Origin: Escherichia coli
GTDB lineage: Bacteria; Pseudomonadota; Gammaproteobacteria; Enterobacterales; Enterobacteriaceae
Strand: one strand, 5' to 3'
Assembly (NCBI RefSeq): GCF_003018235.1
Contig: NZ_CP027437.1
DNA length: 64,000 nucleotides
Shown: positions 1 through 21,943 of the stretch, in pieces
How positions within the stretch are numbered: position 1 is the stretch's first letter
How the letters are laid out: every line of letters starts with the position of its first letter
Notes under the pieces: generated by a model
Seen by the model: only the letters and a program-made list of their open reading frames with translations
What the model was told of the DNA's origin: nothing
Database searches by the model: none
Translations under genes and position numbers: made by a program

Positions 1-604
1 TGCCACCATCTCCAGTACCGCCAACACGCTGCAAATCATCACGGTGGCCGCCATACCCCAGGCGATGCAAAACATCCAGAACAATGACTTCAAAGCGCGA
101 AGGAGAAACCTGCAATAAGTTTTCCAGAACCTCATCAGCCACCGCATCACGAAGCTCTTTTAGCGCCTGATCTAACCGATCGTCCGGGCTGCTCTTTGCA
201 AGTTCTTCATGATCGGGAGAGTCGGCTTTCGGATCTAAATCGACGGCATCCGGCCGTGACTTAAGTTTGACATTCACAAAATCGAAGGCCAGATGGTTCG
301 TCTCCTGCTCCGTCATTGGCTGGGGATGAGACGCAACCCAGTCAAAACCCGCAGGAGTCAGGCACCATTTGCCACGCGACAAACTTTGCGACAACCCGGC
401 ACGTTTTAAACGGTCATGCGCCCAGCCTGCACGATTTTTATAAACAAGTTGTCCGCTGGTAATGACTTTCGCTCGCTGGCTGTCATCCAGTCCTAATGCA
501 TCCGCGGCAGCCTCATGAACATCACGCGCGGCTGCACCTTCCGGTTTTGTCGCCAGATAACGCAGAACAGGTTCAATAAATTTGTCATAGGTTGGAACCG
601 TCAT
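1..604 (-). CDS. mrr: Mrr methyl-directed (type IV) restriction endonuclease, N-terminal ~201 codons only; the gene runs off the window start
   Basis: Reverse-complement translation from ATG at 604..602 reads MTVPTYDKFIEPVLRYLATKPEGAAARDV..., recognised as the Mrr N-terminus; divergent from hsdR as in the E. coli immigration control region. Confidence 0.85.
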   Translation of the reverse strand, partial: MTVPTYDKFIEPVLRYLATKPEGAAARDVHEAAADALGLDDSQRAKVITSGQLVYKNRAGWAHDRLKRAGLSQSLSRGKWCLTPAGFDWVASHPQPMTEQETNHLAFDFVNVKLKSRPDAVDLDPKADSPDHEELAKSSPDDRLDQALKELRDAVADEVLENLLQVSPSRFEVIVLDVLHRLGYGGHRDDLQRVGGTGDGG

Positions 605-791
605 AGTACATCCTTGCAGAATCAGGTAGATGTTTTTCGGCTACTATAACACTACCAAAATAGGCGAACACGTTAGAAATGAGTCAGTTGCTGTGACCGT
701 GGTCATTGCCCGGAAAGGTACAGAAAGCTAAGATGCGATGTTATGGGCCTTAAATATTTGGACAGGCCCACACAGCAATGGATTAATAACA

Positions 792-3700
792 ATGATGAAT
801 AAATCCAATTTTGAATTCCTGAAGGGCGTCAACGACTTCACTTATGCCATCGCCTGTGCGGCGGAAAATAACTACCCGGATGATCCCAACACGACGCTGA
901 TTAAAATGCGTATGTTTGGCGAAGCCACAGCGAAACATCTTGGTCTGTTACTCAACATCCCCCCTTGTGAGAATCAACACGATCTCCTGCGCGAACTCGG
1001 CAAAATCGCCTTCGTTGATGACAACATCCTCTCTGTATTTCACAAATTACGCCGCATTGGTAACCAGGCGGTGCACGAATATCACAACGATCTCGACGAT
1101 GCCCAGATGTGCCTGCGGCTCGGGTTCCGCTTGGCTGTCTGGTACTACCGTCTGGTCACCAAAGATTATGACTTCCCGGTGCCGGTATTTGTGTTGCCGG
1201 AACGTGGCGAAAACCTCTATCACCAGGAAGTGCTGACGCTAAAACAACAGCTTGAACAGCAGGCGCGAGAAAAAGCGCAGACTCAGGCAGAAGTCGAAGC
1301 GCAACAGCAGAAGCTGGTTGCCCTGAACGGCTATATCGCCATTCTGGAAGGCAAACAGCAGGAAACAGAAGCGCAAACCCAGGCTCGCCTTGCGGCGCTG
1401 GAAGCACAGCTTGCCGAGAAGAACGCGGAACTGGCAAAACAGACCGAACAGGAACGTAAGGCTTACCACAAAGAAATTACCGATCAGGCCATCAAGCGCG
1501 CACTCAACCTTAGCGAAGAAGAGAGCCGCTTCCTGATTGACGCGCAACTGCGTAAAGCAGGCTGGCAGGCCGATAGCAAAACCCTGCGCTTCTCCAAAGG
1601 CGCACGCCCGGAACCCGGCGTCAATAAAGCCATTGCCGAATGGCCGACCGGGAAAGATGAAACGGGTAATCAGGGCTTTGCGGATTATGTGCTGTTTGTC
1701 GGCCTCAAGCCCATCGCGGTGGTAGAGGCGAAACGTAAAAATATCGACGTTCCAGGCAAGCTCAATGAGTCTTATCGCTACAGCAAATGCTTCGATAATG
1801 GCTTCCTGCGGGAAACCTTGCTTGAGCACTACTCACCGGATGAAGTGCATGAAGCAGTGCCGGAGTATGAAACCAGCTGGCAGGACACCAGCGGCCAACA
1901 ACGGTTTAAAATCCCCTTCTGCTACTCGACCAACGGGCGCGAATACCGCGCAGCAATGAAGACCAAAAGCGGCATCTGGTATCGCGACGTGCGTGATACC
2001 CGCAATATGTCGAAAGCCTTACCCGAGTGGCACCGCCCGGAAGAGCTGCTGGAAATGCTCGGCAGTGAACCGCAAAAACAGAATCAGTGGTTTGCCGATA
2101 ACCCTGGTATGAGCGAGCTGGGTCTGCGTTATTATCAGGAAGATGCCGTCCGCGCGGTTGAAAAGGCTATCGTCAAGGGCCAACAAGAGATCCTACTGGC
2201 GATGGCGACCGGTACCGGTAAAACCCGTACGGCAATCGCCATGATGTTCCGCCTGATCCAGTCCCAACGTTTTAAACGCATTCTCTTCCTTGTGGATCGC
2301 CGCTCTCTTGGCGAGCAGGCGCTGGGGGCGTTTGAAGATACGCGTATTAACGGCGACACCTTCAACAGCATTTTCGACATTAAAGGTCTGACGGATAAAT
2401 TCCCGGAAGACAGCACAAAAATTCACGTTGCCACCGTACAGTCGCTGGTGAAACGCACCCTGCAATCAGATGAACCGATGCCGGTGGCCCGTTACGACTG
2501 TATCGTCGTTGACGAAGCGCATCGCGGCTATATTCTCGATAAAGAGCAGACCGAAGGCGAGCTGCAGTTCCGCAGCCAGCTGGATTACGTTTCTGCCTAC
2601 CGTCGCATTCTCGATCACTTCGATGCGGTAAAAATCGCCCTCACCGCCACCCCGGCGCTGCATACGGTGCAGATTTTCGGCGAGCCGGTTTACCGTTACA
2701 CCTACCGTACCGCGGTTATCGACGGTTTTCTGATCGACCAGGATCCGCCGATTCAGATCACCACCCGCAACGCACAGGAAGGGGTTTATCTCTCCAAGGG
2801 CGAACAGGTAGAGCGCATCAGCCCGCAGGGAGAAGTGATCAACGATACCCTGGAAGACGATCAGGATTTTGAGGTCGCCGACTTTAACCGAGGCCTGGTG
2901 ATCCCGGCGTTTAACCGCGCCGTCTGTAACGAACTCACCAACTACCTTGATCCGACCGGGTCACAAAAAACGCTGGTCTTCTGCGTCACCAATGCCCATG
3001 CCGATATGGTGGTGGAAGAGCTGCGTACCGCATTCAAGAAAAAGTATCCGCAACTGGAGCACGACGCGATCATCAAGATCACCGGTGATGCCGATAAAGA
3101 CGCGCGCAAAGTGCAGACCATGATCACCCGTTTCAATAAAGAGCGGCTGCCCAATATCGTGGTAACCGTCGACCTGCTGACGACCGGTGTCGATATTCCG
3201 TCGATCTGTAATATCGTGTTCCTGCGTAAAGTACGCAGCCGCATTCTGTACGAACAGATGAAAGGCCGCGCCACGCGCTTATGCCCGGAGGTGAATAAAA
3301 CCAGCTTTAAGATTTTTGACTGTGTCGATATTTACAGCACGCTGGAGAGCGTCGACACCATGCGTCCGGTGGTGGTGCGCCCGAAGGTGGAACTGCAAAC
3401 GCTGGTCAATGAAATTACCGATTCAGAAACCTATAAAATCACCGAAGCGGATGGCCGTAGCTTTGCCGAGCACAGCCATGAACAACTGGTGGCGAAGCTC
3501 CAGCGCATCATCGGCCTGGCCACATTTAACCGTGACCGCAGCGAAACGATAGATAAACAGGTGCGTCGTCTGGATGAGCTATGCCAGGACGCGGCGGGAG
3601 TGAACTTTAACGGCTTCGCCTCGCGCCTGCGGGAAAAAGGGCCGCACTGGAGCGCCGAAGTCTTTAACAAACTGCCTGGCTTTATCGCCCGTCTGGAAAA

Positions 3701-4304
3701 GCTGAAAACCGACATCAACAACCTGAATGATGCGCCGATCTTCCTCGATATCGACGATGAAGTGGTGAGCGTAAAATCGTTGTACGGTGATTACGACACG
3801 CCGCAGGATTTCCTCGAAGCCTTTGACTCGCTGGTGCAACGTTCCCCGAACGCACAGCCGGCATTGCAGGCGGTGATCAATCGCCCGCGCGATCTCACCC
3901 GTAAAGGGCTGGTCGAACTCCAGGAGTGGTTTGACCGCCAGCACTTTGAGGAATCTTCCCTGCGCAAAGCGTGGAAAGAGACGCGTAATGAAGATATTGC
4001 CGCCCGGCTGATTGGTCATATTCGCCGTGCTGCGGTAGGCGATGCGCTGAAACCGTTTGAGGAACGTGTCGATCACGCGCTGACGCGCATCAAGGGCGAA
4101 AACGACTGGAGCAGCGAGCAATTAAGCTGGCTCGATCGTTTAGCGCAGGCGCTGAAAGAGAAAGTGGTGCTCGACGACGATGTCTTCAAAACCGGCAACT
4201 TCCACCGTCGCGGCGGGAAGGCGATGCTGCAAAGAACCTTTGACGATAATCTCGACAACCTGCTCGATAAATTCAGCGATTATATCTGGGACGAGCTGGC
4301 CTGA
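792..4304 (+). CDS. hsdR: Type I restriction enzyme R subunit (HsdR), type IA family
   Basis: ORF 738..4304; likely true start at the MMNKSNFEFLKG methionines (792); DEAD-box helicase motifs (AMATGTGKT, VVDEAH); followed by hsdM and hsdS. Confidence 0.95.
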   Translation: MMNKSNFEFLKGVNDFTYAIACAAENNYPDDPNTTLIKMRMFGEATAKHLGLLLNIPPCENQHDLLRELGKIAFVDDNILSVFHKLRRIGNQAVHEYHNDLDDAQMCLRLGFRLAVWYYRLVTKDYDFPVPVFVLPERGENLYHQEVLTLKQQLEQQAREKAQTQAEVEAQQQKLVALNGYIAILEGKQQETEAQTQARLAALEAQLAEKNAELAKQTEQERKAYHKEITDQAIKRALNLSEEESRFLIDAQLRKAGWQADSKTLRFSKGARPEPGVNKAIAEWPTGKDETGNQGFADYVLFVGLKPIAVVEAKRKNIDVPGKLNESYRYSKCFDNGFLRETLLEHYSPDEVHEAVPEYETSWQDTSGQQRFKIPFCYSTNGREYRAAMKTKSGIWYRDVRDTRNMSKALPEWHRPEELLEMLGSEPQKQNQWFADNPGMSELGLRYYQEDAVRAVEKAIVKGQQEILLAMATGTGKTRTAIAMMFRLIQSQRFKRILFLVDRRSLGEQALGAFEDTRINGDTFNSIFDIKGLTDKFPEDSTKIHVATVQSLVKRTLQSDEPMPVARYDCIVVDEAHRGYILDKEQTEGELQFRSQLDYVSAYRRILDHFDAVKIALTATPALHTVQIFGEPVYRYTYRTAVIDGFLIDQDPPIQITTRNAQEGVYLSKGEQVERISPQGEVINDTLEDDQDFEVADFNRGLVIPAFNRAVCNELTNYLDPTGSQKTLVFCVTNAHADMVVEELRTAFKKKYPQLEHDAIIKITGDADKDARKVQTMITRFNKERLPNIVVTVDLLTTGVDIPSICNIVFLRKVRSRILYEQMKGRATRLCPEVNKTSFKIFDCVDIYSTLESVDTMRPVVVRPKVELQTLVNEITDSETYKITEADGRSFAEHSHEQLVAKLQRIIGLATFNRDRSETIDKQVRRLDELCQDAAGVNFNGFASRLREKGPHWSAEVFNKLPGFIARLEKLKTDINNLNDAPIFLDIDDEVVSVKSLYGDYDTPQDFLEAFDSLVQRSPNAQPALQAVINRPRDLTRKGLVELQEWFDRQHFEESSLRKAWKETRNEDIAARLIGHIRRAAVGDALKPFEERVDHALTRIKGENDWSSEQLSWLDRLAQALKEKVVLDDDVFKTGNFHRRGGKAMLQRTFDDNLDNLLDKFSDYIWDELA

Positions 4305-4505
4305 CACGTATACACTTCATCCTTCAGGCTGCCTCTGCGTTGGCTGCGCTCGTTCACCCCGGTCACGTACTTCTGTACGCTCCCGGGGATTCACTCACTT
4401 GCCGCCTTGATGCAACCTGAATGATTTTGTGTATATTACCCTCGGCAATTTCTTCTTCTACGGCCCCAAACAATGCGGGCCGTTGTTTAATTTACGGAAC
4501 TCACA

Positions 4506-6095
4506 ATGAACAATAACGATCTGGTCGCGAAGCTGTGGAAGCTGTGCGACAACCTGCGCGATGGCGGCGTTTCCTATCAAAACTACGTCAATGAACTCGC
4601 CTCGCTGCTGTTTTTGAAAATGTGTAAAGAGACCGGGCAGGAAGCGGAATACCTGCCGGAAGGTTACCGCTGGGATGACCTGAAATCCCGCATCGGCCAG
4701 GAGCAGTTGCAGTTCTACCGAAAAATGCTCGTGCATTTAGGCGAAGATGACAAAAAGCTGGTACAGGCAGTTTTTCATAATGTTAGTACCACCATCACCG
4801 AGCCGAAACAAATAACCGCACTGGTCAGCAATATGGATTCACTGGACTGGTACAACGGCGCGCACGGTAAGTCGCGCGATGACTTCGGCGATATGTACGA
4901 AGGGCTGCTGCAGAAGAACGCCAACGAAACCAAGTCTGGTGCAGGCCAGTACTTCACCCCGCGTCCGCTGATTAAAACCATTATTCATCTGCTGAAACCG
5001 CAGCCACGTGAAGTGGTACAGGACCCGGCAGCGGGTACGGCGGGCTTTTTGATTGAAGCCGACCGCTACGTTAAGTCGCAGACCAATGATCTGGACGACC
5101 TTGATGGCGACACGCAGGATTTCCAAATCCACCGCGCGTTTATCGGCCTCGAACTGGTGCCCGGCACCCGTCGTCTGGCGCTGATGAACTGCCTGCTGCA
5201 CGATATTGAAGGCAACCTCGACCACGGCGGCGCAATCCGTCTGGGCAACACTCTGGGTAGCGACGGTGAAAACCTGCCGAAGGCGCATATTGTCGCCACT
5301 AACCCGCCGTTTGGCAGCGCCGCAGGCACCAACATTACCCGCACCTTTGTTCACCCGACCAGCAACAAACAGTTGTGCTTTATGCAGCATATTATTGAAA
5401 CGCTGCATCCCGGCGGTCGTGCGGCGGTGGTTGTGCCGGATAACGTGCTGTTTGAAGGCGGCAAAGGCACCGACATTCGTCGTGACCTGATGGATAAGTG
5501 TCATCTGCACACCATTCTGCGTCTGCCGACCGGTATTTTTTACGCTCAGGGCGTGAAGACCAACGTGCTGTTCTTTACCAAAGGGACGGTGGCGAACCCG
5601 AATCAGGATAAGAACTGTACCGATGATGTGTGGGTGTATGACCTGCGTACCAATATGCCGAGTTTCGGCAAGCGCACGCCGTTTACCGACGAGCATTTGC
5701 AGCCGTTTGAGCGCGTGTATGGCGAAGACCCGCACGGTTTAAGCCCGCGTACTGAAGGAGAATGGAGTTTTAACGCCGAAGAGACGGAAGTTGCCGACAG
5801 CGAAGAGAACAAAAATACCGATCAGCATCTTGCTACCAGCCGCTGGCGCAAGTTCAGCCGTGAGTGGATCCGCACCGCGAAATCCGATTCGCTGGATATC
5901 TCCTGGCTGAAAGATAAAGACAGTATTGATGCCGACAACCTGCCGGAGCCGGATGTGTTAGCGGCAGAAGCGATGGGCGAACTGGTACAGGCGCTGTCTG
6001 AACTGGATGCGCTGATGCGTGAACTGGGGGCGAGCGATGAGGCGGATGCGCAGCGCCAGTTGCTGGAAGAAGCATTTGGTGGGGTGAAGGAATGA
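4506..6095 (+). CDS. hsdM: Type I restriction-modification N6-adenine DNA methyltransferase M subunit (HsdM)
   Basis: 529-aa ORF with the NPPF catalytic motif (ATNPPFGSA) and an AdoMet-binding region; stop overlaps the hsdS start (ATGA). Confidence 0.95.
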   Translation: MNNNDLVAKLWKLCDNLRDGGVSYQNYVNELASLLFLKMCKETGQEAEYLPEGYRWDDLKSRIGQEQLQFYRKMLVHLGEDDKKLVQAVFHNVSTTITEPKQITALVSNMDSLDWYNGAHGKSRDDFGDMYEGLLQKNANETKSGAGQYFTPRPLIKTIIHLLKPQPREVVQDPAAGTAGFLIEADRYVKSQTNDLDDLDGDTQDFQIHRAFIGLELVPGTRRLALMNCLLHDIEGNLDHGGAIRLGNTLGSDGENLPKAHIVATNPPFGSAAGTNITRTFVHPTSNKQLCFMQHIIETLHPGGRAAVVVPDNVLFEGGKGTDIRRDLMDKCHLHTILRLPTGIFYAQGVKTNVLFFTKGTVANPNQDKNCTDDVWVYDLRTNMPSFGKRTPFTDEHLQPFERVYGEDPHGLSPRTEGEWSFNAEETEVADSEENKNTDQHLATSRWRKFSREWIRTAKSDSLDISWLKDKDSIDADNLPEPDVLAAEAMGELVQALSELDALMRELGASDEADAQRQLLEEAFGGVKE

Positions 6096-7459
6096 GTGCT
6101 GGGAAATTGCCGGAGGGGTGGGAACAGATTGAAATAGGCGACATTGCTGATGTCATCTCTGGTGGGACACCAAAATCGGGAGTCGCTGAAAATTTTGCAC
6201 CTTCGGGTGAGGGAGTCGCCTGGCTTACGCCTGCCGATTTGAGCGGTTATAAAGAGAAATATATCTCACATGGTGCCAGAGATTTAACTACACTAGGCTA
6301 TTCCTCTTGTTCAGCAAAACTAATGCCCAAAGGCACTATACTTTTTAGTAGCCGGGCACCGATTGGATATGTTGCTATTGCTGCAAATGAGATTGCGACT
6401 AACCAGGGTTTCAAAAGTTTTGCTTTTCCTTCAGACATTTTTCCTGATTATGCATATTACTTTCTCCGCAACATCAGACATATTGCAGAGGAAATGGGCA
6501 CAGGAACAACTTTTAAAGAAATTTCTGGTAGTTCTGCGAAAACATTACCATTTGTTCTTGTACCGTTTGCCGAACAAAAAATCATCGCTGAAAAACTCGA
6601 TACGCTGCTGGCACAGGTAGACAGCACCAAAGCACGTCTTGAGCAAATCCCACAAATCCTGAAACGTTTTCGTCAGGCGGTTCTGGGTGCAGCGGTGAGA
6701 GGAAAACTAACTGAAGACTGGAGAGATAATTCAAGCCTGTCTGGGTGGAGAGAAGGCAAACTTGGGGAGTTTATAAAAAAACCAAGTTACGGAACGTCAT
6801 CTAAGTCTAATAAAGAAGGACTCATTCCTGTATTAAGAATGGGCAATCTTCAGGGAGGAAAGTTGGACTGGACGGATCTAGTCTATACGTCAGATACCAT
6901 AGAAATTGAAAAGTATAAACTTGAGTACAATGATGTATTATTCAATCGTACAAATAGTCCTGAACTTGTCGGGAAAACAGCCATATATAAATCAGAGCAA
7001 CCAGCTATTTATGCAGGTTATTTGATTAGGGTTCAATGTTTACCTGATTTAAACCCTGACTATCTTAACTACCATTTAAATAGCATTTTGGGGAGACAAT
7101 ATTGCTATTCAGTTAAATCTGATGGGGTCAGTCAATCAAATATTAATGCACAGAAATTAATTGCATACCCAATAACTGTTCCCCCCCTTCCCGAACAAGC
7201 TGAAATCGTTCGCCGCGTCGAGCAACTCTTCGCCTACGCCGACACAATAGAAAAACAGGTCAACAACGCCTTAGCCCGCGTCAACAATCTGACGCAATCC
7301 ATCCTGGCAAAAGCGTTCCGTGGTGAACTCACCGCCCAGTGGCGGGCCGAAAACCCGGAATTAATCAGCGGTGAAAACAGCGCCGCCGCGTTGCTGGAGA
7401 AAATCAAAGCTGAACGCGCAGCCAGCGGGGGTAAAAAAGCCTCGCGTAAAAAGTCCTGA
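6092..7459 (+). CDS. hsdS: Type I restriction-modification specificity subunit (HsdS) with two variable target-recognition domains
   Basis: 455-aa ORF; conserved N-terminus MSAGKLPEGW, central block AEQKIIAEKLDTLLAQVDSTKAR and C-terminal block EQAEIVRRVEQLFAYADTIEKQVNNALARVNNLTQSILAKAFRGELTAQWRAEN are typical of type IA HsdS; the two intervening domains are AT-rich and divergent. Confidence 0.93.
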   Translation: MSAGKLPEGWEQIEIGDIADVISGGTPKSGVAENFAPSGEGVAWLTPADLSGYKEKYISHGARDLTTLGYSSCSAKLMPKGTILFSSRAPIGYVAIAANEIATNQGFKSFAFPSDIFPDYAYYFLRNIRHIAEEMGTGTTFKEISGSSAKTLPFVLVPFAEQKIIAEKLDTLLAQVDSTKARLEQIPQILKRFRQAVLGAAVRGKLTEDWRDNSSLSGWREGKLGEFIKKPSYGTSSKSNKEGLIPVLRMGNLQGGKLDWTDLVYTSDTIEIEKYKLEYNDVLFNRTNSPELVGKTAIYKSEQPAIYAGYLIRVQCLPDLNPDYLNYHLNSILGRQYCYSVKSDGVSQSNINAQKLIAYPITVPPLPEQAEIVRRVEQLFAYADTIEKQVNNALARVNNLTQSILAKAFRGELTAQWRAENPELISGENSAAALLEKIKAERAASGGKKASRKKS

Positions 7460-7594
7460 TCATTATTTTCTGGCGCACCTTTCTGGTGCGCTATTTATTA
7501 TTTTTACGCCAATCATAACTCACACAAATATATTTAAATCGTTCCAGAAACTTCCCATTTTATTCTATTTTTAGCTGGACTTTCCCTGTATTTA

Positions 7595-7610
7595 CTGATG
7601 ATATATCCAG
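7595..7610. promoter_or_regulatory. Candidate LexA box (CTG-N10-CAG, AT-rich centre) upstream of symE
   Basis: Sequence CTGATGATATATCCAG lies ~80 bp upstream of the symE start; symE is known to be SOS-regulated. Confidence 0.5.
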
Positions 7611-7614
7611 GTAT

Positions 7615-7697
7615 TTAGCGCGATGCGGATGTGCGCCAACACACCCGCACCGCTCATCACAATCACTATTTATGGAGAATAGTAATCATGACTGACA
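7615..7697 (-). ncRNA. symR: SymR antisense sRNA overlapping the symE 5' UTR and start codon (approximate boundaries)
   Basis: Position antisense to the symE translation start, matching the known symE/symR arrangement; boundaries not determinable from sequence alone. Confidence 0.4.
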
Positions 7698-8029
7698 CGC
7701 ATTCTATTGCACAACCGTTCGAAGCAGAAGTCTCCCCGGCAAATAACCGTCAATTAACCGTGAGTTATGCGAGTCGCTACCCGGATTACAGCCGTATTCC
7801 CGCCATCACCCTGAAAGGTCAGTGGCTGGAAGCCGCCGGTTTTGCCACTGGCACGGCGATAGATGTCAAAGTGATGGAAGGCTGTATTGTCCTCACCGCC
7901 CAACCCCCCGCCGCCGAAGAGAGCGAACTGATGCAGTCGCTTCGCCAGGTGTGCAAGCTGTCGGCGCGTAAACAAAGGCAGGTGCAGGAGTTTATTGGAG
8001 TGATTGCCGGTAAACAGAAAGTCGCGTAA
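7688..8029 (+). CDS. symE: SymE, SOS-induced toxin-like protein
   Basis: ORF 7631..8029; true start most likely ATG at 7688 ([15 protein letters not shown]...), giving 113 aa; sits between hsdS and mcrB. Confidence 0.85.
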
Positions 8030-8190
8030 CAGCGTTTACTCCCGGTTAACCACCGGGAGCTTTCCACTGACTCAATAGAAACTTTCCCCCTCAGTAAATA
8101 TTTACCTGCCTGATTGTGCAGTAAAAATCTATTGTTTCAGTACGTTGCGAAAGCGATAATAGAGGCTTAGCAATGAGGAAGGCACATCTT

Positions 8191-9570
8191 ATGGAATCAA
8201 TTCAAGCCTGGATTGAAAAATTTATTGAGCAAGCACAGCAACAAAGTTCACAATCCACTAAAGATTATCCAACGTCTTACCGTAACCTGCGAGTAAAAGT
8301 GAGTTTCGGTTATGGCAATTTTACATCTATTCCCTGGTTTGCATTTCTTGGAGAAGGTCAGGAAGTTTCTAACGGTATATATCCCGTTATTCTCTATTAT
8401 AAAGATTTTGATGAGTTGGTTTTGGCTTATGGTATAAGTGACACGAATAAACCACATGCCCAATGGCACTTTTCTTCTGACATACCTAAAACAATCGCAG
8501 AGTATTTCCAGGCAACTTCAGGTGTATATCCTAAAAAATACGGACAGTCCTATTACGCCTGTTCCCAAAAAGTCTCACAGGGTCTTGATTATACCCGGCT
8601 TGCCTCCATGCTGGACAACATAATCAACGACTATAAATTAATATTTAATTCTGGCAAGAGTGTTATTCCACCTATGTCAAAAACTGAATCATACTGTCTG
8701 GAAGATGCGTTAAATGATTTGTTTATCCCTGAAACCACAATAGAGACGATACTCAAACGATTAACCATCAAAAAAAATATTATCCTCCAGGGGCCGCCCG
8801 GCGTTGGAAAAACCTTTGTTGCACGCCGTCTGGCTTACTTGCTGACAGGAGAAAAGGCTCCGCAACGCGTCAATATGGTTCAGTTCCATCAATCTTATAG
8901 CTATGAGGATTTTATACAGGGCTATCGTCCGAATGGCGTCGGCTTCCGACGTAAAGACGGCATATTTTACAATTTTTGTCAGCAAGCTAAAGAGCAGCCA
9001 GAGAAAAAGTATATTTTTATTATAGATGAAATCAATCGTGCCAATCTCAGTAAAGTATTTGGCGAAGTGATGATGTTAATGGAACATGATAAACGAGGTG
9101 AAAACTGGTCTGTTCCCCTAACCTACTCCGAAAACGATGAAGAACGATTCTATGTCCCGGAGAATGTTTATATCATCGGTTTAATGAATACTGCCGATCG
9201 CTCTCTGGCCGTTGTTGACTATGCCCTACGCAGACGATTTTCTTTCATAGATATTGAGCCAGGTTTTGATACACCACAGTTCCGGAATTTTTTACTGAAT
9301 AAAAAAGCAGAACCTTCATTTGTTGAGTCTTTATGCCAAAAAATGAACGAGTTAAACCAGGAAATCAGCAAAGAGGCCACTATCCTTGGGAAAGGATTCC
9401 GCATTGGGCATAGTTACTTCTGCTGTGGGTTGGAAGATGGCACCTCTCCGGATACGCAATGGCTTAATGAAATTGTGATGACGGATATCGCCCCTTTACT
9501 CGAAGAATATTTCTTTGATGACCCCTATAAACAACAGAAATGGACCAACAAATTATTAGGGGACTCATAG
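8191..9570 (+). CDS. mcrB: McrB, GTP-dependent 5-methylcytosine-specific restriction enzyme subunit B (AAA+ GTPase)
   Basis: ORF 8173..9570; start MESIQAWIEKF at 8191 preceded by AGGAAGG; Walker A LQGPPGVGKTF; 459 aa. Confidence 0.93.
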   Translation: MESIQAWIEKFIEQAQQQSSQSTKDYPTSYRNLRVKVSFGYGNFTSIPWFAFLGEGQEVSNGIYPVILYYKDFDELVLAYGISDTNKPHAQWHFSSDIPKTIAEYFQATSGVYPKKYGQSYYACSQKVSQGLDYTRLASMLDNIINDYKLIFNSGKSVIPPMSKTESYCLEDALNDLFIPETTIETILKRLTIKKNIILQGPPGVGKTFVARRLAYLLTGEKAPQRVNMVQFHQSYSYEDFIQGYRPNGVGFRRKDGIFYNFCQQAKEQPEKKYIFIIDEINRANLSKVFGEVMMLMEHDKRGENWSVPLTYSENDEERFYVPENVYIIGLMNTADRSLAVVDYALRRRFSFIDIEPGFDTPQFRNFLLNKKAEPSFVESLCQKMNELNQEISKEATILGKGFRIGHSYFCCGLEDGTSPDTQWLNEIVMTDIAPLLEEYFFDDPYKQQKWTNKLLGDS

Positions 9571-10616
9571 TGGAACAGCCCGTGATACCTGTCCGTAATA
9601 TCTATTACATGCTTACCTATGCATGGGGTTATTTACAGGAAATTAAGCAGGCAAACCTTGAAGCCATACCCGGTAACAATCTTCTTGATATCCTGGGGTA
9701 TGTATTAAATAAAGGGGTTTTACAGCTTTCACGCCGAGGGCTTGAGCTTGATTACAATCCTAATACCGAGATCATTCCTGGCATCAAAGGGCGAATAGAG
9801 TTTGCTAAAACAATACGCGGCTTCCATCTTAATCATGGGAAAACCGTCAGTACTTTTGATATGCTTAATGAAGACACGCTGGCTAACCGAATTATAAAAA
9901 GCACATTAGCCATATTAATTAAGCATGAAAAGTTAAATTCAACTATCAGAGATGAAGCTCGTTCACTTTATAGAAAATTACCGGGCATTAGCACTCTTCA
10001 TTTAACTCCGAAGCATTTCAGCTATCTGAACGGCGGAAAAAATACGCGTTATTATAAATTCGTTATCAGTGTCTGCAAGTTCATCGTCAATAATTCTATT
10101 CCAGGTCAAAACAAAGGACATTATCGTTTCTATGAATTTGAAAGAAATGAAAAAGAGATGTCATTACTTTATCAAAATTTTCTTTTTGAATTTTGCCGTC
10201 GTGAATTACCATCTGTAAATACAACTCGCCCACATTTAAAATGGGATGCATCAAGCATATCGGATCAATCACTTAGCTTGTTACCTCGAATGGAAACTGA
10301 CATCACCATTAACTCATCAGGGAAAATACTTATCGTTGATGCCAAATACTATAAAAGCATTTTTTCACGACGAATGGGTACAGAAAAGTTTCATTCTCAA
10401 AATCTATATCAACTGATGAGTTACTTATGGTCGTTAAAGCCTGAAAATGGCGAAAAAACAGGGGGGTTATTAATATACCCACACGTAGACACCTCAGTGA
10501 AACATCGTTATAAAATTAATGGCTTCGATATTGGCTTGTGTACCGTCAATTTAGGTCAGGAATGGCCGTGTATACATCAAGAATTACTCGACATTTTCGG
10601 TGAATATCTCAAATAA
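9570..10616 (+). CDS. mcrC: McrC, nuclease subunit of the McrBC restriction system
   Basis: ORF 9540..10616; probable GTG start at 9570 (VEQPVIPVRNIYYMLTYAWGYLQ) overlapping the mcrB stop by 1 nt; 348 aa. Confidence 0.9.
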   Translation: MEQPVIPVRNIYYMLTYAWGYLQEIKQANLEAIPGNNLLDILGYVLNKGVLQLSRRGLELDYNPNTEIIPGIKGRIEFAKTIRGFHLNHGKTVSTFDMLNEDTLANRIIKSTLAILIKHEKLNSTIRDEARSLYRKLPGISTLHLTPKHFSYLNGGKNTRYYKFVISVCKFIVNNSIPGQNKGHYRFYEFERNEKEMSLLYQNFLFEFCRRELPSVNTTRPHLKWDASSISDQSLSLLPRMETDITINSSGKILIVDAKYYKSIFSRRMGTEKFHSQNLYQLMSYLWSLKPENGEKTGGLLIYPHVDTSVKHRYKINGFDIGLCTVNLGQEWPCIHQELLDIFGEYLK

Positions 10617-10638
10617 GCGGTAAGTTTTATAGAAAATA

Positions 10639-10665
10639 CCGCTCCCGACACCACATCGGGAGCGG
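10639..10665. terminator. Bidirectional intrinsic terminator hairpin between the convergent mcrC and large helicase genes
   Basis: Inverted repeat CCGCTCCCGA-CACCACA-TCGGGAGCGG, GC-rich stem, in the 56-bp gap between two convergent stop codons. Confidence 0.55.
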
Positions 10666-10672
10666 CTCATCA

Positions 10673-13600
10673 TCAGGAGGCGATCACCTCCACCAGCACA
10701 TCCGTTGCCCAACTCTCTTCGCTGTTGGCGACATTCCCTTCCTTGCAGGCCTGAGCCATTTTGACTAACTGGAAAGAAACGTCATCGCGGAAATCAAAGT
10801 AATGCCATTGCGATGCAAAGTTGATGCGCCAGTAGCCCATCCCCTGATCGAAGCGGATCTTCAATACCTGACCATCATCAAAAGTCACCGTCAGTTTACG
10901 ATGGTGAGGGATATCGCGCGGCGAGTCGAACACCGTCAGTTCTACCGGCCTGCCCAGCGCAGCAGCAAACCACTGATCAGCGAAATCCTGAAAATCCGCT
11001 ATGCTCATCCAGTCATGGAAAGGCCGGTTACCGGGGCGATCTTTATCTTTAAATAGCGTATCCAGCGTCACTTCAGCGCCATCGGTCAGCTTTGTTTTTA
11101 GCGGTCTCAAAATTGATCCCAACAACGCCAGCGCAACCGGGTTTTGCAGATAGCGATCGGTATAGTGAACGCCGGTAATTCGCGTGTTATTCATCAGTGA
11201 CTGCGCTTCTTCATGGTCGTTAAACAGCACGTCCCAGAAGCGTTGCCCAAACTGCGACAGTGGTCCATTCAACTGTTTGTGGATCTGAATGTCTTTGACC
11301 CGCTCGACAGCGTTGGCGGCTTTAGCCGGCAGAATAAATTCGTTCAGCTCTACCGTTTTATAGCCGAGACTACGTACCACCAGTTCGTCATTCAGGTGCC
11401 ACTCCGGCCCCGGAATCGTTGCCTGCTGGCTACGAGAGGCCAGCGTCATCACGCGATCGGCAAAGGTGACCTGAGCAACGATCGGTAATTTCAAATCCTG
11501 TTCAACATGGCATAGCCGCACACCCAGCGCAGTAAATTGCGATAGTTCGTGCAACAGGTCCGGGTCATCCACTCCCGCAGGAATAACAAGATCGACCTCG
11601 ACGTTGTCTTTTAGCCGATAGTTCTGAACCGCCGCGCGGAACTGACGTGCGTATAAATCCCACTCATTGGGCGCGCCGGTCATCCACAGGGTGAGCTTTT
11701 CAGCGCCTTCGTTAATCGCCCGGCGAATCGTATCGCCAATGGCGCCAGGGCAGTAGCGGGCATCCGGCAGCGAGAATGTCTCTTCATCCGGTAAACCGAT
11801 GTAATACGTGAAGTCATCGCCAAGCCAGGCCAGCGCCGCTTTGCGATCCAGCAAATCGTGATCGTGGCGAGTCTGGGAATCAAGCAGGCATTCACTACAT
11901 GCAGTCTCACAATGGCGGCAGCCTAACTGTTTCACCATTCCCTGCAATATAGCTTCAATGTGTACCGGTGCGCTGGAGGCAAAACCTGCACCACCGCTGA
12001 TCACATCATAAAGCTGTACGGCTAATACCGATTGCCCATCCTCCAGTCTGACCGGACGTACAGAATAGCCGAGTTCTGCGGCGGAGATACCCAGAACGCC
12101 CGCCAGCGCCTGACGCAGAGCAACCGCCAGAGTCATGGCAACAATCCGCCCCTCCTCTGTGTTATCTGGCAGATACTCGCCGTTTTGCGGTTTGCGCAGA
12201 ATCATTTCAAAGACATCGGTGCGCGCCAGTGCGCCCAGGGTGACGTTCTTCATGAGTGCCGTCGAACCGGGGCAAATCAGACGATGATTCTGGCTGTCGC
12301 GATCCGCTTTACCCGGACGCGGTGGATAGTGAGCTTCCATGCTTTTCGGCGCATCATTTTCATTCAGCATCGACTCAGCACGGCCACAGCTCAGACACAA
12401 TGCATAACCGTGTCCACCTTCCCCCAAACTTTGCTGGAAAACATGCCCATCAGCCCCAGAAGCCATATAACCCATTAGCGGGTTAGGCAACGGTACGGGC
12501 TCTGCTTTAACAAAGACCCACGCGGGGACAACCGGGACGAATTTCATGGTTTCAATATTGTTCGTTACCGGAGCGTGTGCATCGGTGACAAACCCGGCAG
12601 GCTGCAGCACCTGACGGCGATTATCCATGATTATTTTTTCGCCGCAGGCGCTATTGGAGCAAAAGAGCATCCCGGAACTGCTCATCCCCTCTTCATAGCC
12701 AATGGTCCCGCATTTGTGACAGCGCCAGGCGCAATCCAGACGCTGGGCTTCATTGGTATCAGCATTAATGTTGTGCCAGTGCAGTGAGACACCGGCAGAG
12801 CGGAAGACACGGCCATCAAGAATGATCTCTGCTCCCGGTGCATATTCACGAATGGCAACACCGAGGTTACGGGAAGGTAATCCTTTATAACGGGAGACGT
12901 TATCTTCACGGTCCTTTTTATCACGACTTTTTTGCGATTTTTCGCGGATATAATCTTCCATTGTGAAGTTATCAAACGTCACTACATCTGTCGGGAAACC
13001 GTATCCCGGCAAGAAGGTTCTGGCAGCTAGATCGCGCAGCAGATACTCGCCACAGTGCCGTTTCTTCTCCAGCTCTATGCGCTTACGATAAGGCGTTTGC
13101 GGCTGCGACTCACGCTCCTGTGTCACGAGATCGCGATAAACGGAGAGCCACCGCTGCTGCAGGAAGGTGATCGCGTTGATTGTTTTATCCCGCAGATATT
13201 CGGCTCTTGCACCATGCAACGCCGTACCTTTCACCAGCCGTTCCAGCGCCGTGTCGATATCAAGAACAGGGCGTTCCAGCCAGACTTTGAAGCGTTCGCA
13301 TTTTGACTGCCCGTCATCTTCACCGAAAAACCAGAGGCTATCGAGGCTGGTTTTCTCTTTATCGGTTTCGCCAATAACGTTACATAAAAAGTCGGACAGT
13401 AATAATGCATTGACGTGACGTTGCACCAGTCGGGCGGAGTTCATCGCGACCATGGGTGCCGGGATCATGGTTTCAAATGGCCAGAGCGGGTTGGCAAAAA
13501 CCTGCTGGTCGTGTGGGTTACCTTTACATAGGGTGTAAGAGATCGCACGTGATTCTTTACTACGCCCGGCTCGCCCGGCGCGCTGTAAATAGTTGGCCGG

Positions 13601-16600
13601 ATGTGGCGGTACGTTGTTCATTACCACCGCAGTAATGCCCCCGATATCAACCCCCATTTCCATGGTGGTGGAACAGTTGAGAACATTTAGTTGCCCATTC
13701 TTGAACATCTTTTCATAGCTTTGCAGACGTTCTGACGACTGCTGGGCAGAGTGCTCGGCAGTGCGATAGTAGAAACCGCCTTCCACGACACGATCGTTGA
13801 TGTCTGTCCAGACGTTTTCCGACCGCAATTGTGCGATCAGCGGATCATTGCTGACCCAGTCGCGTGCTTTTGCCAGACCCTCTGCGTAGTCTTCCTGTGA
13901 ACGATCCAGCTTCCAGATTTCCGGCATGGTGACTTTCTGCGCGACAAAAGTGTCATATTGCGCCTGGGTAAGATGCTCGAACGAAATATGGGTAGGCAGA
14001 TAAGGGGTTAAGCCTTTAAAAGCCGTATCCAGGATTTTATTGGTTACCGGGCAAATCCAGGCATCCGTGATTAATGAAAAAGTCATATGCTCTTTCGGTA
14101 AATAAAAACGGTTGCCATCGGGTTTCAGTACTGCAAGCGGTCCGGTAAGTTGGGCCCATGCTTCTTTCAGCCATGTATTGATAATATCAATAGTCGCCGT
14201 ATTGACGGTTTTGAATCCAGCCCCCAGCATCAGTAACTTCGCTAAACGATGGGATACGTTGCCATTACGAATTTGAGGCCAGCGTCTGTTCTGATTATCT
14301 TCAGGATCTTTTGATTCCGGGTTACGGACGAATTTTGATGAAAAACGGCTACCGATCCAGTTTTTCAGCTCATCATCCAGCTGTGTGAAGTTGCTCTCAC
14401 GAACGTAATGATCCAGCGTAACTTTGAGAAAATCGCGCCAGTCATCCAGCGTTAATCCTTTTTCCTGCCAGTGCAGAGGGATCTTATGTATTTTCTCCAG
14501 CCCCAGGTAACCAACCTGAACCAGCCCTTGTGTTTCCAGGCTGTTAGTCCGTTTAGGGCGACGCATGAATTCCCGGAATAACAACATTTCCGAAAGCTTT
14601 AGAGGCCCGCCGTTTTCATTAAACACTTCAGGCTTAAGATAATGGTTATATTGCAGAACCGGGCCACGGATATCGGCTCTCTCTTTAAGCTCGTTAACCA
14701 TTTCTGTCCAGGTTCGGGATACCAGAGTAATTGCAGCTTTTCCACCGATTGCAGACTGGTAAGCCTGTTCAAGCTGCTCGGCCTGCGCTTCTGATAATTT
14801 CGCTTGATCCGGCAATCCCCAGCTTCGATATTCTTCTGCCTGCTCACGGGCTTGCTTTACCCTGGTCGCTAATTTTTCCAGATCGGCATTAGCGTTCGGC
14901 GCCGTGGGCGTTTGCGTTCGTTGATGCCAGCTCAGAATTTCGACTACGCTTCCGCGTAAGCGACTACGTTCTGCTTCTTGCTGCATACGCACCGCCATCC
15001 GGGCTGTCCCTTGTCGACTATCCGTAAAGGTAATGAGTCGACGTCCTCGCCCTGGCAACGAATCTGGTCCGACGCCCTCTTTGCCTTCATCACTGGCAAA
15101 GTCCTGACAATACTCAAGAACGGTGGGAACGATATTAGTAACGTAAAATGGCCCACCTAATAGTGCACGCCGGAAGGGCTGTTTCCCGCTCATGCCTCTG
15201 AAGCCACAGCCGCTGGCGCTACAAACCTGTTCAATATCATTAATAATCAGCGGAATGCTGTCATTATTAATAACGCCAATACGGCGCGTCTGACGGTCGA
15301 GGCGTTGTAGGGTATAGCCTGTCTCGCTGGTCTCTCCTGCGGCAATAATCAACGGAGGCTGGAAACCGTTCTCTTTTTCGACTTTTTCCTCTGTAGTGTC
15401 ATGTTCAACAGGTACTTCATCCTGCAAGGAGAACTCATCGCCACCTTTATTTTCCCATTGGACAAGTTTGCCCTTTTTGTCCTGCGCCAGAAGATGAGGC
15501 TCATTACAATCATTACAGAACGCCACTTCGTAGACAGGGCTTCCACAGTCGCAATTTTGTCGCTGGTTCACATACACATAGCCAAAGGGCCAGCCTTTTT
15601 CGAGCGGTGTACCGTGCTTTAATCTGCAATCTTTATCAACACAAGCCCATATTCCCTGGGTATTACGCTGGAAGATATGCGCCCTGACTTTAAGAAATGC
15701 GGGATCCTTTGCATTAGGTTGAGTCCCTGAACAGACATCGATCCAACGCAGTACTTCCTGCTGGCTGTAATGCTGTTTTGTCAGCGCATTTAACCGCTGC
15801 GTCATCTCATCCAGTTTCATTGGATTAGGTTGGCTAACCAACATTTCACGTATGTAACGCGCTTCGGGGGAGTGCGTAAGCGCATAAAAGCGCTCAGGAC
15901 TTATCCCTTTAATTTTATTATCATTTTTATCTTTTAGATCCAGATCAGGTATTTGCTCTATTTCGTCTAACGGAACAGAAACGTTTTTGGATGGTTCCAG
16001 TTCAGGAATCACCCGACTTCCGTCCAGAACATCGATGCGCTCCTGCGGGATACCGGATAATTCAGAGAGAAATTTTTTCAGCTGCTTTTCAGCGTCGCTG
16101 CCGGCAATGGTCGCAGAGGTCGCTACAAAGCGCACGTCATCTGGTGTCACGCCAAACGCTGTCATCACACGACGCAGCTGGAGCGCCAGTTCAGCGGCCT
16201 GCGACCCGACATAGGTATGCGCTTCATCCAGTACAATCCAGCGTAGTGATTTTTGTGCTTTAGATTGCTGGATAATCGGGGCGTCGACCTGGCGAACCAT
16301 CATATATTCCAGCATCGTGCCGTTGGTCACCAGAATCGGCGCAGGTTCTTCACGCATTTTTTCGCGCGAGAGCACCTCATTCGGCCTTTTTGCCTGTTCA
16401 CTTTTTACCGAAGCGTGTAGGTTTTCGGTGTTGCCGTTGTAAAGGCAGTAGCGAATCCCAGTACCAAAACCACGCGTCCAGGCATCCAGACGCTCGCGCT
16501 GTGAATTAATCAAGGCGTTCAATGGATAGAGAAAAAGGGCTCGGACACCAACCAACGGATTGTTGCCATTTTCATGCAGTTCCCGGTAAAGATCTTCCAG

Positions 16601-17017
16601 CACCGGAACCATAAAACATTCCGTTTTACCTGAACCCGTACCACTGGTTACCACCACTGAATGTTTCTTTTCCAGCAAAGCTTTCCAACTGGCTAACTGG
16701 TGTGTAAAAGGCTTCCAGTCAGCACCAAATCGGTACCGGCCATTACTCTGATTATCCAGTGAATCAACCACTGCTTTGCTCAACAATGCGTTGCCTTCCG
16801 TCAGGCTGCGCATCGTGTGATTTGACTCCTTCCATCCAAACATTTGCTGGAATACCGGAGAAGCAAGGAATGAGCCCGGTTTCCCACAATCAGCCCCCAT
16901 TTGTTGCGCGAGATGTTCACGCAGCTGCGGGTTGGTAACGCCCATGATACTGAGCGTTGCTTCAGTTGAACGAGACAACGATTGTTCAATAAGTGACGAA
17001 AAATAGCGTGTAGTCAT
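10673..17017 (-). CDS. Very large DEAD/DEAH-box helicase with C-terminal cysteine-cluster (DUF1998/MrfA-like Zn-ribbon) region; DruE-like (Druantia) defence protein
   Basis: Intact 2114-aa ORF; Walker [17 protein letters not shown] box [11 protein letters not shown] motif, helicase-C motif QRAGRAGR, cysteine clusters (CHKCG...CSNSACG; CLSCG; [11 protein letters not shown]); good RBS AAGGAATAAGG before the ATG; 87 bp downstream of the partner gene. Confidence 0.75.
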
Positions 17018-17104
17018 CCTTATTCCTTTTTATTTTTTAGCAACATAACGCAACAGGCTGCACTGAAAGATGGTCTTAAACCAGCGGGAATCGAAGTCCC
17101 TGAC

Positions 17105-18823
17105 TTACCTCAGGAAAAATACGGCACCGGGTTTACGGTCAAATACAGCTTCAAAAGAAGTATTTCCGCTTGCCACAGCTGCAGCGAAGACGGGTAACCA
17201 GGCCACGGAATAGCGGTGATTTGCGTCAGGATTAATACCAATCACTGGATTTTTTTGTGACATCATCCATTTATACAGACGCTTGCAGCCATATTCAGGC
17301 CAGCGAGCTTCACTGTGCTCACGTAAAAGCTCCTGATACCACCCGTGGACACAAGATTCAGGAATAGACGGAGGGAGATATCCGTTACTTAACCATTTCT
17401 CAATTTCATCGGCATATGTCGGGAACACGAGCCCCAGCCGTTGAAACATATTAGTAACCAGTAATTTCTGGGTTTCCTCCGGTGCACCTTTTTGGCTCAG
17501 GAACAATTTGAAACGCTCAGATGCAGCTTTGATCTCAAAGATGGGGAAAAACTCCCATAGAATAGGGAACTCATTCTCAATACGACTCAGGTACTCTGCT
17601 GACATTTCAAATTTGAAGAGCGACATCGCCAATGCCTGCGGATGCTGCACTAGTGCACGCCATACTTCAAAGGTTGCCAGCGGTAAATAACCAAATTGAT
17701 CGTACAGGCTACGCATAAATTGCCAGCCGGAATGGGCAGGATCGTTAGCCATCTGTCCGAGAACCAGTGTGATGGTATTAACTTCTGCCTGTGGATTAAA
17801 AAGCTGGGTCGCTTTCTGCAATGAGCGGATGTTGCTTTCTTCTACCGGTAACGAAGATTCGCCACGAATGAAGCAGGGGCGAAAAGCCATCTCCTCACCC
17901 GGTTTAGGAACAACCAACCATGGCCCATTTTTGTTAACGATTGAGCTCAACTCATATTCACCGACAGGCACTCCCTCGCTCATTCTTGATGCTAAGGGGA
18001 TGGATTTCCTCTCGGGTTCACTTAACAGCATGATAACGGGGGAAGGAATCTGCCCAGCACGATGGTTCACTGACTGGCTGAGTAATAGTTCTTTTTCATA
18101 ATCATAGCGCAGGCTGTATTTATAGCGACGAATTTGCCAGGCCATGACCACACCTGCCCCCGTAATACGCATCTCAACAACCTGATCAATACCTGCCTCA
18201 AGTGAAATCAGGTTCTCAATATGTTCGCGCAGACTATAGAGATTCAATTCAACAGGACGATCGCTCAACGCCGTATAACACCATTCATGCCATGCCTGTA
18301 ATCCACTAACGGAGCGCAAATACAACTGCAATGTATATTTTGTCGGCTCACCATTTCTGGAGAACAGAAACGCTCTGGAACCCAGCAGATCATGCAGCGT
18401 AATGTTTTTATCCAGAGGACGTCCGTTTACATCAAGAGCGAGACAGCCTTTAGCGGGAAAAGGTAACTCAATGTCGATGGGGTCAGCCGCCAAATTAGGC
18501 AGAACTTGTAATGTAATAAATGCCGGAGGTACCCCTTCCGCTTTAAGTTGTATCTCTGTTCGCCCCTCAGTACGCTTACGTGTAGCCTCCAATGTTTTAT
18601 CTTTAAGTTTTGCTACACAAGGATGCTGTGTGGTGATTAAGATAGTGCCTTCATTTGCGTGCATTCCACCTTTTATCTCAATACTGAAATCAGCAGGCAA
18701 GATACCGATTTTGCGACGCAAGAGCGTTTCATTGTTACTATTACGGATAGAAAGATATTGAGCCCCCAGCATCTCTTGTATATGACATTGCTCAATTGAA
18801 ATTCCGCTCAGGTAACGCGTTAC
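17105..18823 (-). pseudogene. C-terminal fragment of the DruH-like partner gene, separated from its 5' part by IS100
   Basis: The 582-aa ORF 17105..18853 begins with a GTG inside the IS inverted repeat; native sequence starts at 18823; frame is continuous with fragment 20778..21943 once the IS and one GTTAC copy are removed. Confidence 0.75.
18819..18823. repeat. Target-site duplication (GTTAC), left copy
   Basis: Identical 5-bp GTTAC immediately flanks both ends of the 1954-bp element. Confidence 0.75.
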
Positions 18824-20777
<1,954 letters not shown>

Positions 20778-20782
20778 GTTAC
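20778..20782. repeat. Target-site duplication (GTTAC), right copy
   Basis: See left copy. Confidence 0.75.
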
Positions 20783-21943
20783 ATCAATGCTTTGAATATC
20801 CGGTAGTGTAGAAATGACTTTTGGTACACCAATAAATGTTTCATCTGGATGACAAACCCAGCTTGCACGCTTTCCATTTAGAGCAAACCTTCCGATGCTG
20901 ATTTGTTCTCTTCCGGTGCGAATCCGATAAGTTTCATTTGCTGTAACTGTAACGTCCTGACATCCCTTCACAGGTAGTGCTTTTAGTCCTAATACGTTTA
21001 CTGCGCTCGATTGGCCATCAAAACCAGCAACATTGCTATTATCCCGAGGGAGTACAATCAGAACATCGCTGCTTCGCACACTGCAAGAAGCCTGTCCCTG
21101 TAACAGCCATTGATCTGCATCAACGATGAAGGTTAACGGCACCTCACCAATGGCAATTTCACTGTCATCAAGTTTAATGCTCCCAACAATCATCCCTCCA
21201 GCACGAGCCACTAATGACAAACCTGCCGATGGATTTTGCCTGACAAATCTCACTTCGCTTTTACGTAATCGAACTGTTGCCTGTCTGTTTTCCAGGGAAG
21301 CATAGGCTGGCCCAAGGCCAGAGACTTCCTCACCATCTTCACAAATGGCAAGTTCAAAGCGCGTAGTTGACGGCTCGCTTGTTACAGGAAAGGAAACTTC
21401 GTCCGGAAGAGATACTATCACCCTAAGCTCATCTGGATGCTTTTCTGACCAATAGAATTGGCAACGCGTACTCTTATTTTTTTGTAGTCGAGGCTTAGCC
21501 TCTACAGAGGCTGCGCATAGCAGTCCATTCAAAAAATGCGTTCCTGTTTCATCATCTAACGGTATTGGAAACTCGCTTCGCCAGGTAGGGTGAACCTTCT
21601 CAAGCTGTTGTACTGGTTCTTTGTGATTTATTAGGTTGTGAGTAAGTACTAAGGAATTGAGGTTATCAGCCATATGACTGATAAGTTCTACAGAGGTATC
21701 TTCGCTAAAAACAGTTGGCAGCGCTGATTTTTCTATGACAGCTCTTGCCAGCGAAAGGGCAGAAAAACCTGACTGCTTTGCTTGCTCATATTGTCCAAGG
21801 ATCCTGGAGAAAACAGCCAGAAAGCGACTGTCTGATTCTTTGAGTAGCCGGAAAGGTAAACCACCTTCACTGAATAATGTTCCGAGAAAATTGCGTCGTT
21901 CAGATTCATAAAATCGAATTGGGCGCAGCCAGTAATCTTCCAT
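20778..21943 (-). pseudogene. N-terminal fragment of the DruH-like partner gene, interrupted by IS100
   Basis: The 393-aa ORF 20762..21943 ends in a stop supplied by the IS end; the reconstructed junction reads ...TLPDIQSIDV|TRYLSGISIEQ... in frame. Confidence 0.75.

Follow-up and report, generated by a model that had tools for sequence, protein, structure and literature searches.

An hsdS gene in an Escherichia coli immigration control region matches the EcoUTI89I allele, with CCA(N7)CTTC as its predicted target site

Introduction

Which DNA site is recognized by a type I restriction-modification system whose specificity subunit follows that of EcoKI in its conserved blocks and departs from it in both target-recognition domains (TRDs)? 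This question is raised by the hsdS gene (6092..7459, + strand, 455 amino acids) of an Escherichia coli sequence of 64,000 nucleotides (contig NZ_CP027437.1), referred to here as the window, with positions counted from its first nucleotide. A previous sequence-only reading of this locus had proposed a type IA system with a different, possibly uncatalogued, DNA specificity that arose by domain shuffling. Here, we compare the locus with EcoKI, with complete E. coli genomes, and with specificity subunits of known target site, using the EcoKI proteins from MG1655 as the reference for all HsdS, HsdM, and HsdR alignments.

Results and Discussion

An intact type IA locus

The three genes of the system lie on the + strand in the order hsdR-hsdM-hsdS, and all three open reading frames (ORFs) are intact and of full length. 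The type IA restriction subunit gene hsdR (792..4304) encodes a protein with 1158 of 1170 residues identical to EcoKI HsdR; the ORF as called mechanically starts at 738 and has 1188 codons, and the start equivalent to that of EcoKI is at 792 (1170 codons), with the alignment beginning at query residue 19. The type IA methyltransferase subunit gene hsdM (4506..6095, 529 codons) encodes a protein that matches EcoKI HsdM at 527 of 529 residues, and its stop and the hsdS ATG overlap by 4 nucleotides. Downstream of hsdS we find symE (7688..8029, + strand; NCBIfam NF010128, SymE, E = 8e-69, covering residues 20-131 of the ORF at 7631-8029), followed by mcrB (8173-9570) and mcrC (9540-10616). The arrangement hsdR-hsdM-hsdS-symE-mcrBC is the one typical of the immigration control region in E. 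coli, and the locus is syntenic with both UTI89 and K-12. EcoKI, the type IA prototype from K-12, thus shares the chromosomal locus with the window, with symE and mcrBC downstream in both, and its HsdR and HsdM are 99% identical to those encoded here.

HsdS passes the cutoff of the NCBIfam equivalog for type I specificity subunits (NF007278; 736.6 bits, with a cutoff of 662), contains the Pfam domain Methylase_S (PF01420) twice (residues 7-187, E = 8e-24, and residues 217-394, E = 2.5e-14), and has the EcoKI S subunit (PDB 2Y7C) as its best match among solved structures. Its alignment with EcoKI HsdS shows a variable-conserved-variable-conserved layout. All 10 residues of the conserved N-terminal block (residues 1-10; 6092..6121, + strand) match EcoKI, and the N-terminal recognition domain that follows, TRD1 (residues 11-157; 6122..6562, + strand), is only about 20% identical at the amino acid level. 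The central conserved region (residues 158-211; 6563..6724, + strand), which holds the first coiled-coil/dimerization helix, is again near-identical to EcoKI (~93%) and has the same length, without indels, and the C-terminal recognition domain, TRD2 (residues 212-363; 6725..7180, + strand), falls back to ~20% amino acid identity. In the conserved C-terminal region, comprising the second coiled-coil helix and the tail (residues 364-455 plus the stop codon; 7181..7459, + strand), 91 of 92 residues match. The same contrast is seen at the nucleotide level, where identity to EcoKI hsdS per 60-nucleotide bin is 17 to 58% in both TRDs versus 83 to 100% in the conserved blocks.

Domain layout, conserved blocks, and cognate HsdM and HsdR all agree in placing the system, by its sequence, in the type IA (EcoKI) family. 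Since both target-recognition domains differ from those of EcoKI, the specificity is expected to differ as well. These alignments bear out the sequence-only reading in its description of the protein: the N terminus, the spacer, and the C-terminal region had been recognized as conserved type IA blocks, the two intervening domains had been described as unlike EcoKI, and the domain limits given for them (roughly residues 10-150 and 215-365) lie within a few residues of those found here.

Identity with a characterized allele

By direct string comparison, the window hsdS is identical to that of UTI89 at 1368 of 1368 nucleotides, and a published UTI89 hsdS knockout primer (PMC8287963 supplement) matches its first 50 nucleotides. 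SMRT sequencing of UTI89 has revealed m6A at 5'-CCA(N7)CTTC-3', a modification that is gone after hsdSMR deletion, and unmethylated plasmids with one or two CCA(N7)CTTC sites are restricted by wild-type UTI89 and not by the deletion mutant (Mehershahi and Chen, NAR 2021, PMC8287963). In the same work, swapping the K-12 hsdS into UTI89 yielded functional EcoKI specificity (PMC8287963). The UTI89 system is named EcoUTI89I, with the REBASE entry S.EcoUTORF5051P, and in the REBASE grouping quoted there it belongs with 104 E. coli systems for which Eco646I is the prototype (PMC8287963). The Eco646I site, CCANNNNNNNCTTC, had come into use as a reference by 2008; at that time, Eco646I and Eco377I were described as more frequent in clinical E. 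coli strains than any other type I isoschizomers (PMC2490747), and the same site, CCANNNNNNNCTTC, is tabulated in the review by Loenen et al. (PMC3874165).

The allele is also widespread. A megablast search of complete E. coli genomes recovers the full-length hsdS at ≥99% identity in 223 of 5,426 genomes, and at least 30 genomes among the matches listed carry a 100% identical copy, including UTI89, APEC O1, IHE3034, NU14, and UM146; the copy in strain H1 is disrupted by an insertion sequence (IS). On the strength of this sequence identity, we consider it almost certain that the window hsdS is the already characterized EcoUTI89I allele, an isoschizomer of Eco646I with CCA(N7)CTTC as its site, set in an intact type IA system. 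The window system is tied to Eco646I through the REBASE grouping as quoted in PMC8287963.

The window and UTI89 share, besides hsdS, the type IA family and the hsdR-hsdM-hsdS-symE order, and they differ in their surroundings. The window hsdR, hsdM, and upstream DNA are ~2.4% divergent from those of UTI89, and the region downstream carries mcrBC and DruE in the window, with GmrSD/DUF262 genes in their place in UTI89. The difference from EcoKI, by comparison, lies in the target: the EcoKI site is AAC(N6)GTGC, so that both half-sites differ from those of the window allele, and the nominal spacer is N7 rather than N6.

Predicted activity in the source strain

In the mechanism that we propose, HsdS would serve as the core of both an M2S1 methyltransferase and an R2M2S1 endonuclease, in which the conserved coiled-coil regions, common to EcoKI, would keep the two TRDs at a fixed distance. 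The enzyme would then methylate adenines in 5'-CCA(N7)CTTC-3' and restrict DNA with unmethylated sites. That it does so in the source strain is suggested by the intact ORFs together with the sequence identity to known systems.

An alternative is that the allele is the known one but silent in this strain, owing, for example, to faulty regulation or to missense mutations that impair HsdM or HsdR, in which case neither methylation nor restriction at CCA(N7)CTTC would take place. HsdR and HsdM do differ from the proteins tested in UTI89 (~2.4% nucleotide divergence over 1-5978), gene decay occurs in the region, as the neighboring YjiT/DruH-like gene is broken by IS21, and IS-disrupted hsdS copies are found in other strains (H1 and 67-1). 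However, hsdR, hsdM, and hsdS are all full length here, HsdM and HsdR carry only 2 and 12 substitutions, respectively, relative to the functional EcoKI proteins, and hsdS is identical to the functional UTI89 allele, so that we regard a silent locus as quite improbable. Within the window, we observed no signal of avoidance or enrichment of CCA(N7)CTTC, with 9 sites found and 7.5 ± 2.7 expected.

Even less probable, to a degree that we consider negligible, is an hsdS of type IA whose DNA specificity is new, since the only observation in its favor, namely, that neither domain is related to its EcoKI counterpart (~20% identity), is outweighed by an identical UTI89 gene with an experimentally determined site, by the presence of the allele in 223 of 5,426 complete genomes, and by the description of the CCA(N7)CTTC site for Eco646I by 2008 (PMC2490747). 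The suggestion of a possibly uncatalogued specificity in the sequence-only reading is therefore refuted; that reading had itself stated that an allele already catalogued, with a known specificity and identical over its full length, would count against it, and UTI89 hsdS is such an allele.

Proposed assignment of the half-sites to the two domains

In type I S subunits generally, the 5' half-site is read by the N-terminal domain and the 3' half-site by the C-terminal one (PMC3874165). A tblastn search of plasmids with TRD2 returned the S subunit (HsdSp) of plasmid pZM32 from Zymomonas mobilis ZM4 at 56.8% identity, a match located in the C-terminal domain of that protein (residues ~182-336 of 420; ~57 to 60% amino acid identity). 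The site of pZM32 HsdSp, established by SMRT sequencing and deletion, is GAAG(N7)TCC, equivalent to GGA(N7)CTTC when the complementary strand is read (PMC8432527). The CTTC half-site and the N7 spacing are thus common to HsdSp and the window allele, whereas the N-terminal domains differ, as do the corresponding half-sites (GGA rather than CCA). The Z. mobilis protein is plasmid borne in an alphaproteobacterium and belongs to another hsd family, the aligned region, the C-terminal two-thirds of HsdS, being only ~46% identical. From the general rule for type I S subunits, with independent support from pZM32 HsdSp, whose C-terminal domain is homologous to TRD2 and whose site shares CTTC, we infer that TRD1 reads CCA and that the half-site of TRD2 is CTTC, or GAAG in the complementary strand.

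The positions of the methylated bases can be predicted in a similar way. In type IA enzymes, 8 bp lie between the two methylated adenines, a value that is constant in the published table (PMC3874165), and the equal length of the central region in EcoKI and the window, despite N6 in the one and N7 in the other, fits this pattern. Because of this 8-bp separation, the predicted targets of methylation are the adenine of CC(A) in one strand and, in the opposite strand, the second adenine of GA(A)G, which faces the first T of CTTC.

Probable recent transfer of the specificity cassette

The first 8,025 nucleotides of the window align to UTI89 without gaps and with 143 mismatches, which are very unevenly distributed. 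The flank at 1-5978 accounts for 141 of them (2.4%), whereas the tract at 5979-7998, which begins 117 nucleotides before the end of hsdM, contains hsdS in full, and extends through most of symE, where its distal end lies, has 0. At the flanking rate, ~48 mismatches would be expected in this tract, and the Poisson probability of finding none is ~2e-21. Recombination at hsd is well documented. Because an identical tract of ~2 kb adjoins a flank of 6 kb that is 2.4% divergent, it is likely that the whole specificity cassette recently moved between E. coli lineages by homologous recombination. If true, this would mean that restriction specificity was swapped as a unit between lineages, as an instance of a known process.

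Shuffling of the two domains

When the two domains are searched separately, TRD1 is found in 242 E. coli genomes and TRD2 in 278, of which 55 combine a ~97.8% identical TRD2 with another TRD1. Both counts exceed the 223 genomes with the full allele, indicating that the excess genomes carry reassortants. We observe such reassortants for each domain: the hsdS of ETEC-2265 combines an unrelated N-terminal domain with a C-terminal domain that is 97.8% identical to the window TRD2 at the nucleotide level, and the hsdS of strain 67-1, which is interrupted by IS3, combines the window TRD1 (98.9% nucleotide identity) with a third, unrelated C-terminal domain. As natural reassortants at the same locus, these alleles support the domain shuffling that the sequence-only reading had proposed.

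A similar reassortment pattern is known from the StySQ and StySJ hybrids, in which crossing-over in the central conserved region of StySB and StySP reassorted the N- and C-terminal domains and, with them, the half-site specificities (PMC3874165). Those hybrids were obtained by laboratory transduction, whereas the window, ETEC-2265, and 67-1 alleles are natural. By the same mechanism, TRD cassettes at this locus would be exchanged by homologous recombination within the conserved flanking and central blocks.

Base composition of the recognition domains

The observation, made from the sequence at the outset, that the two domains are more AT-rich than the conserved blocks and than hsdR and hsdM holds true, with GC contents of 0.420 for TRD1 and 0.357 for TRD2 (GC3 of 0.29 in both) versus 0.565 for the C-terminal block of hsdS (GC3 of 0.63), 0.541 for hsdR, and 0.549 for hsdM. 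We considered this AT-richness as a sign of a recent foreign origin of the window allele and rejected it. The target-recognition domains of EcoKI (GC of 0.35 and 0.34) and those of a third allele, that of ETEC-2265 (0.38 and 0.36), are equally AT-rich, and the base composition is therefore no evidence of a recent or unusual import. AT-richness is instead shared by target-recognition domains of type IA systems in general.

Wider relatives of the two domains

Both domains have relatives well beyond E. coli. TRD1 is 40 to 49% identical to S subunits of Pseudoalteromonas, Arthrobacter, Lactococcus, and Methanocaldococcus jannaschii that are plasmid borne. In the crystal structure 1YF2, an S subunit from M. 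jannaschii, TRD1 has a match in each of the two domains (E = 1e-31 and 1e-18). For TRD2, identity is 69% with the S subunit of an Allochromatium plasmid and 57 to 58% with those from Vibrio and Zymomonas. Both TRDs thus resemble S subunits from distant organisms far more closely than they resemble their EcoKI counterparts, a likeness that represents the familiar sharing of TRD cassettes across families. Among plasmids, we found no close homologue of either TRD, the sole match at ≥99% being a chromosome misfiled in PLSDB.

Significance and genomic surroundings

Previous publications already cover the allele, the site it recognizes, and the mechanism by which domains are exchanged, and the allele is a common and ordinary one. 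What the identification offers is a prediction for the source strain, namely, methylation and restriction at CCA(N7)CTTC, which bears on transforming the strain and on reading its methylome. In addition, the half-site assignment proposed above, with CCA for the N-terminal and CTTC for the C-terminal domain, to which the natural reassortants contribute along with the Zymomonas homologue, may aid specificity prediction for related hsdS alleles. Alleles of the ETEC-2265 type would then be predicted to have sites of the form X(Nn)CTTC, and intact alleles of the 67-1 type sites of the form CCA(Nn)Y.

With respect to the wider surroundings, a megablast search with positions 1-20000 of the window against complete E. 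coli genomes gave no full-length match, the best being MEI003 with 99.0% identity over 90% of the query. The homology stops at 18823, where an IS21 element lies, and the neighboring YjiT/DruH-like defense gene is interrupted by an IS21 element.

Probable recombination around hsdS

The 5979-7998 tract, which takes in the 3' end of hsdM, the whole of hsdS (6092-7459, +) and the 5' part of symE, is identical to UTI89 (0 mismatches, 100% identity), compared with 141 mismatches (2.4% divergence) in the adjoining 1-5978. A tract of this length should carry about 48 mismatches (P ~2e-21), and it looks like a recombination patch by which these three segments may have moved between lineages. Downstream of symE, mcrB and mcrC (8173-10616, +) are both intact and occupy the same position as in K-12, whereas UTI89 carries GmrSD/DUF262 genes in their place despite its identical hsdS, indicating that the hsdS allele and the neighboring defense genes assort independently.

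At the other end of the locus, the hsdR ORF begins 18 codons before the EcoKI-equivalent start (792), and the added codons (738-791) probably reflect an in-frame upstream ATG rather than a real extension of hsdR.

Relatives and disrupted copies of the hsdS allele

The N-terminal target-recognition domain of HsdS (TRD1, 6122-6562) matches both domains of 1YF2, the crystal structure of an archaeal S subunit from Methanocaldococcus jannaschii (113 and 70 bits), while the EcoKI TRD1 is far more distant from it than these archaeal domains are. With respect to other E. coli strains, we observe that a related hsdS allele is disrupted by IS3 in strain 67-1 (locus L003, 2471-5123), and that IS1 lies within the same allele as that of the window in strain N31. 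The two insertions show that natural inactivation of hsdS has happened repeatedly.

Sites for the EcoUTI89I/Eco646I-type specificity, CCA(N7)CTTC, occur nine times in the window, a count that does not differ from chance over its whole length. Three of the nine are inside the hsdM 3' end or hsdS (6066-6082 and 6752-6765), including an overlapping pair at 6066 and 6069.

Druantia type III genes and other window genes

An intact druE (10673-17017, -) encodes a Druantia type III helicase of 2,114 aa (PADLOC DruE3, 2696 bits); in K-12 the corresponding region contains nothing but yjiT and the pseudogene yjiV. A YjiT/STY4851-family gene of the window (17105-21943), the DruH-like partner of DruE in Druantia type III, is split by an IS21-family element, with istA (18910-19932) and istB (19929-20711) between its two halves (profile positions 100-485 at 20762-21943, -; profile positions 491-1072 at 17105-18853, -). 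This insertion has probably inactivated the Druantia type III system of the window.

Two other genes of the window, unrelated to the hsd finding, encode an IatC/intimin-like inverse autotransporter adhesin (36047-41287, +; 1,746 aa; 1123 bits, below the model cutoff of 2400 bits) and a pentapeptide-repeat protein (31367-33481, +; 704 aa).
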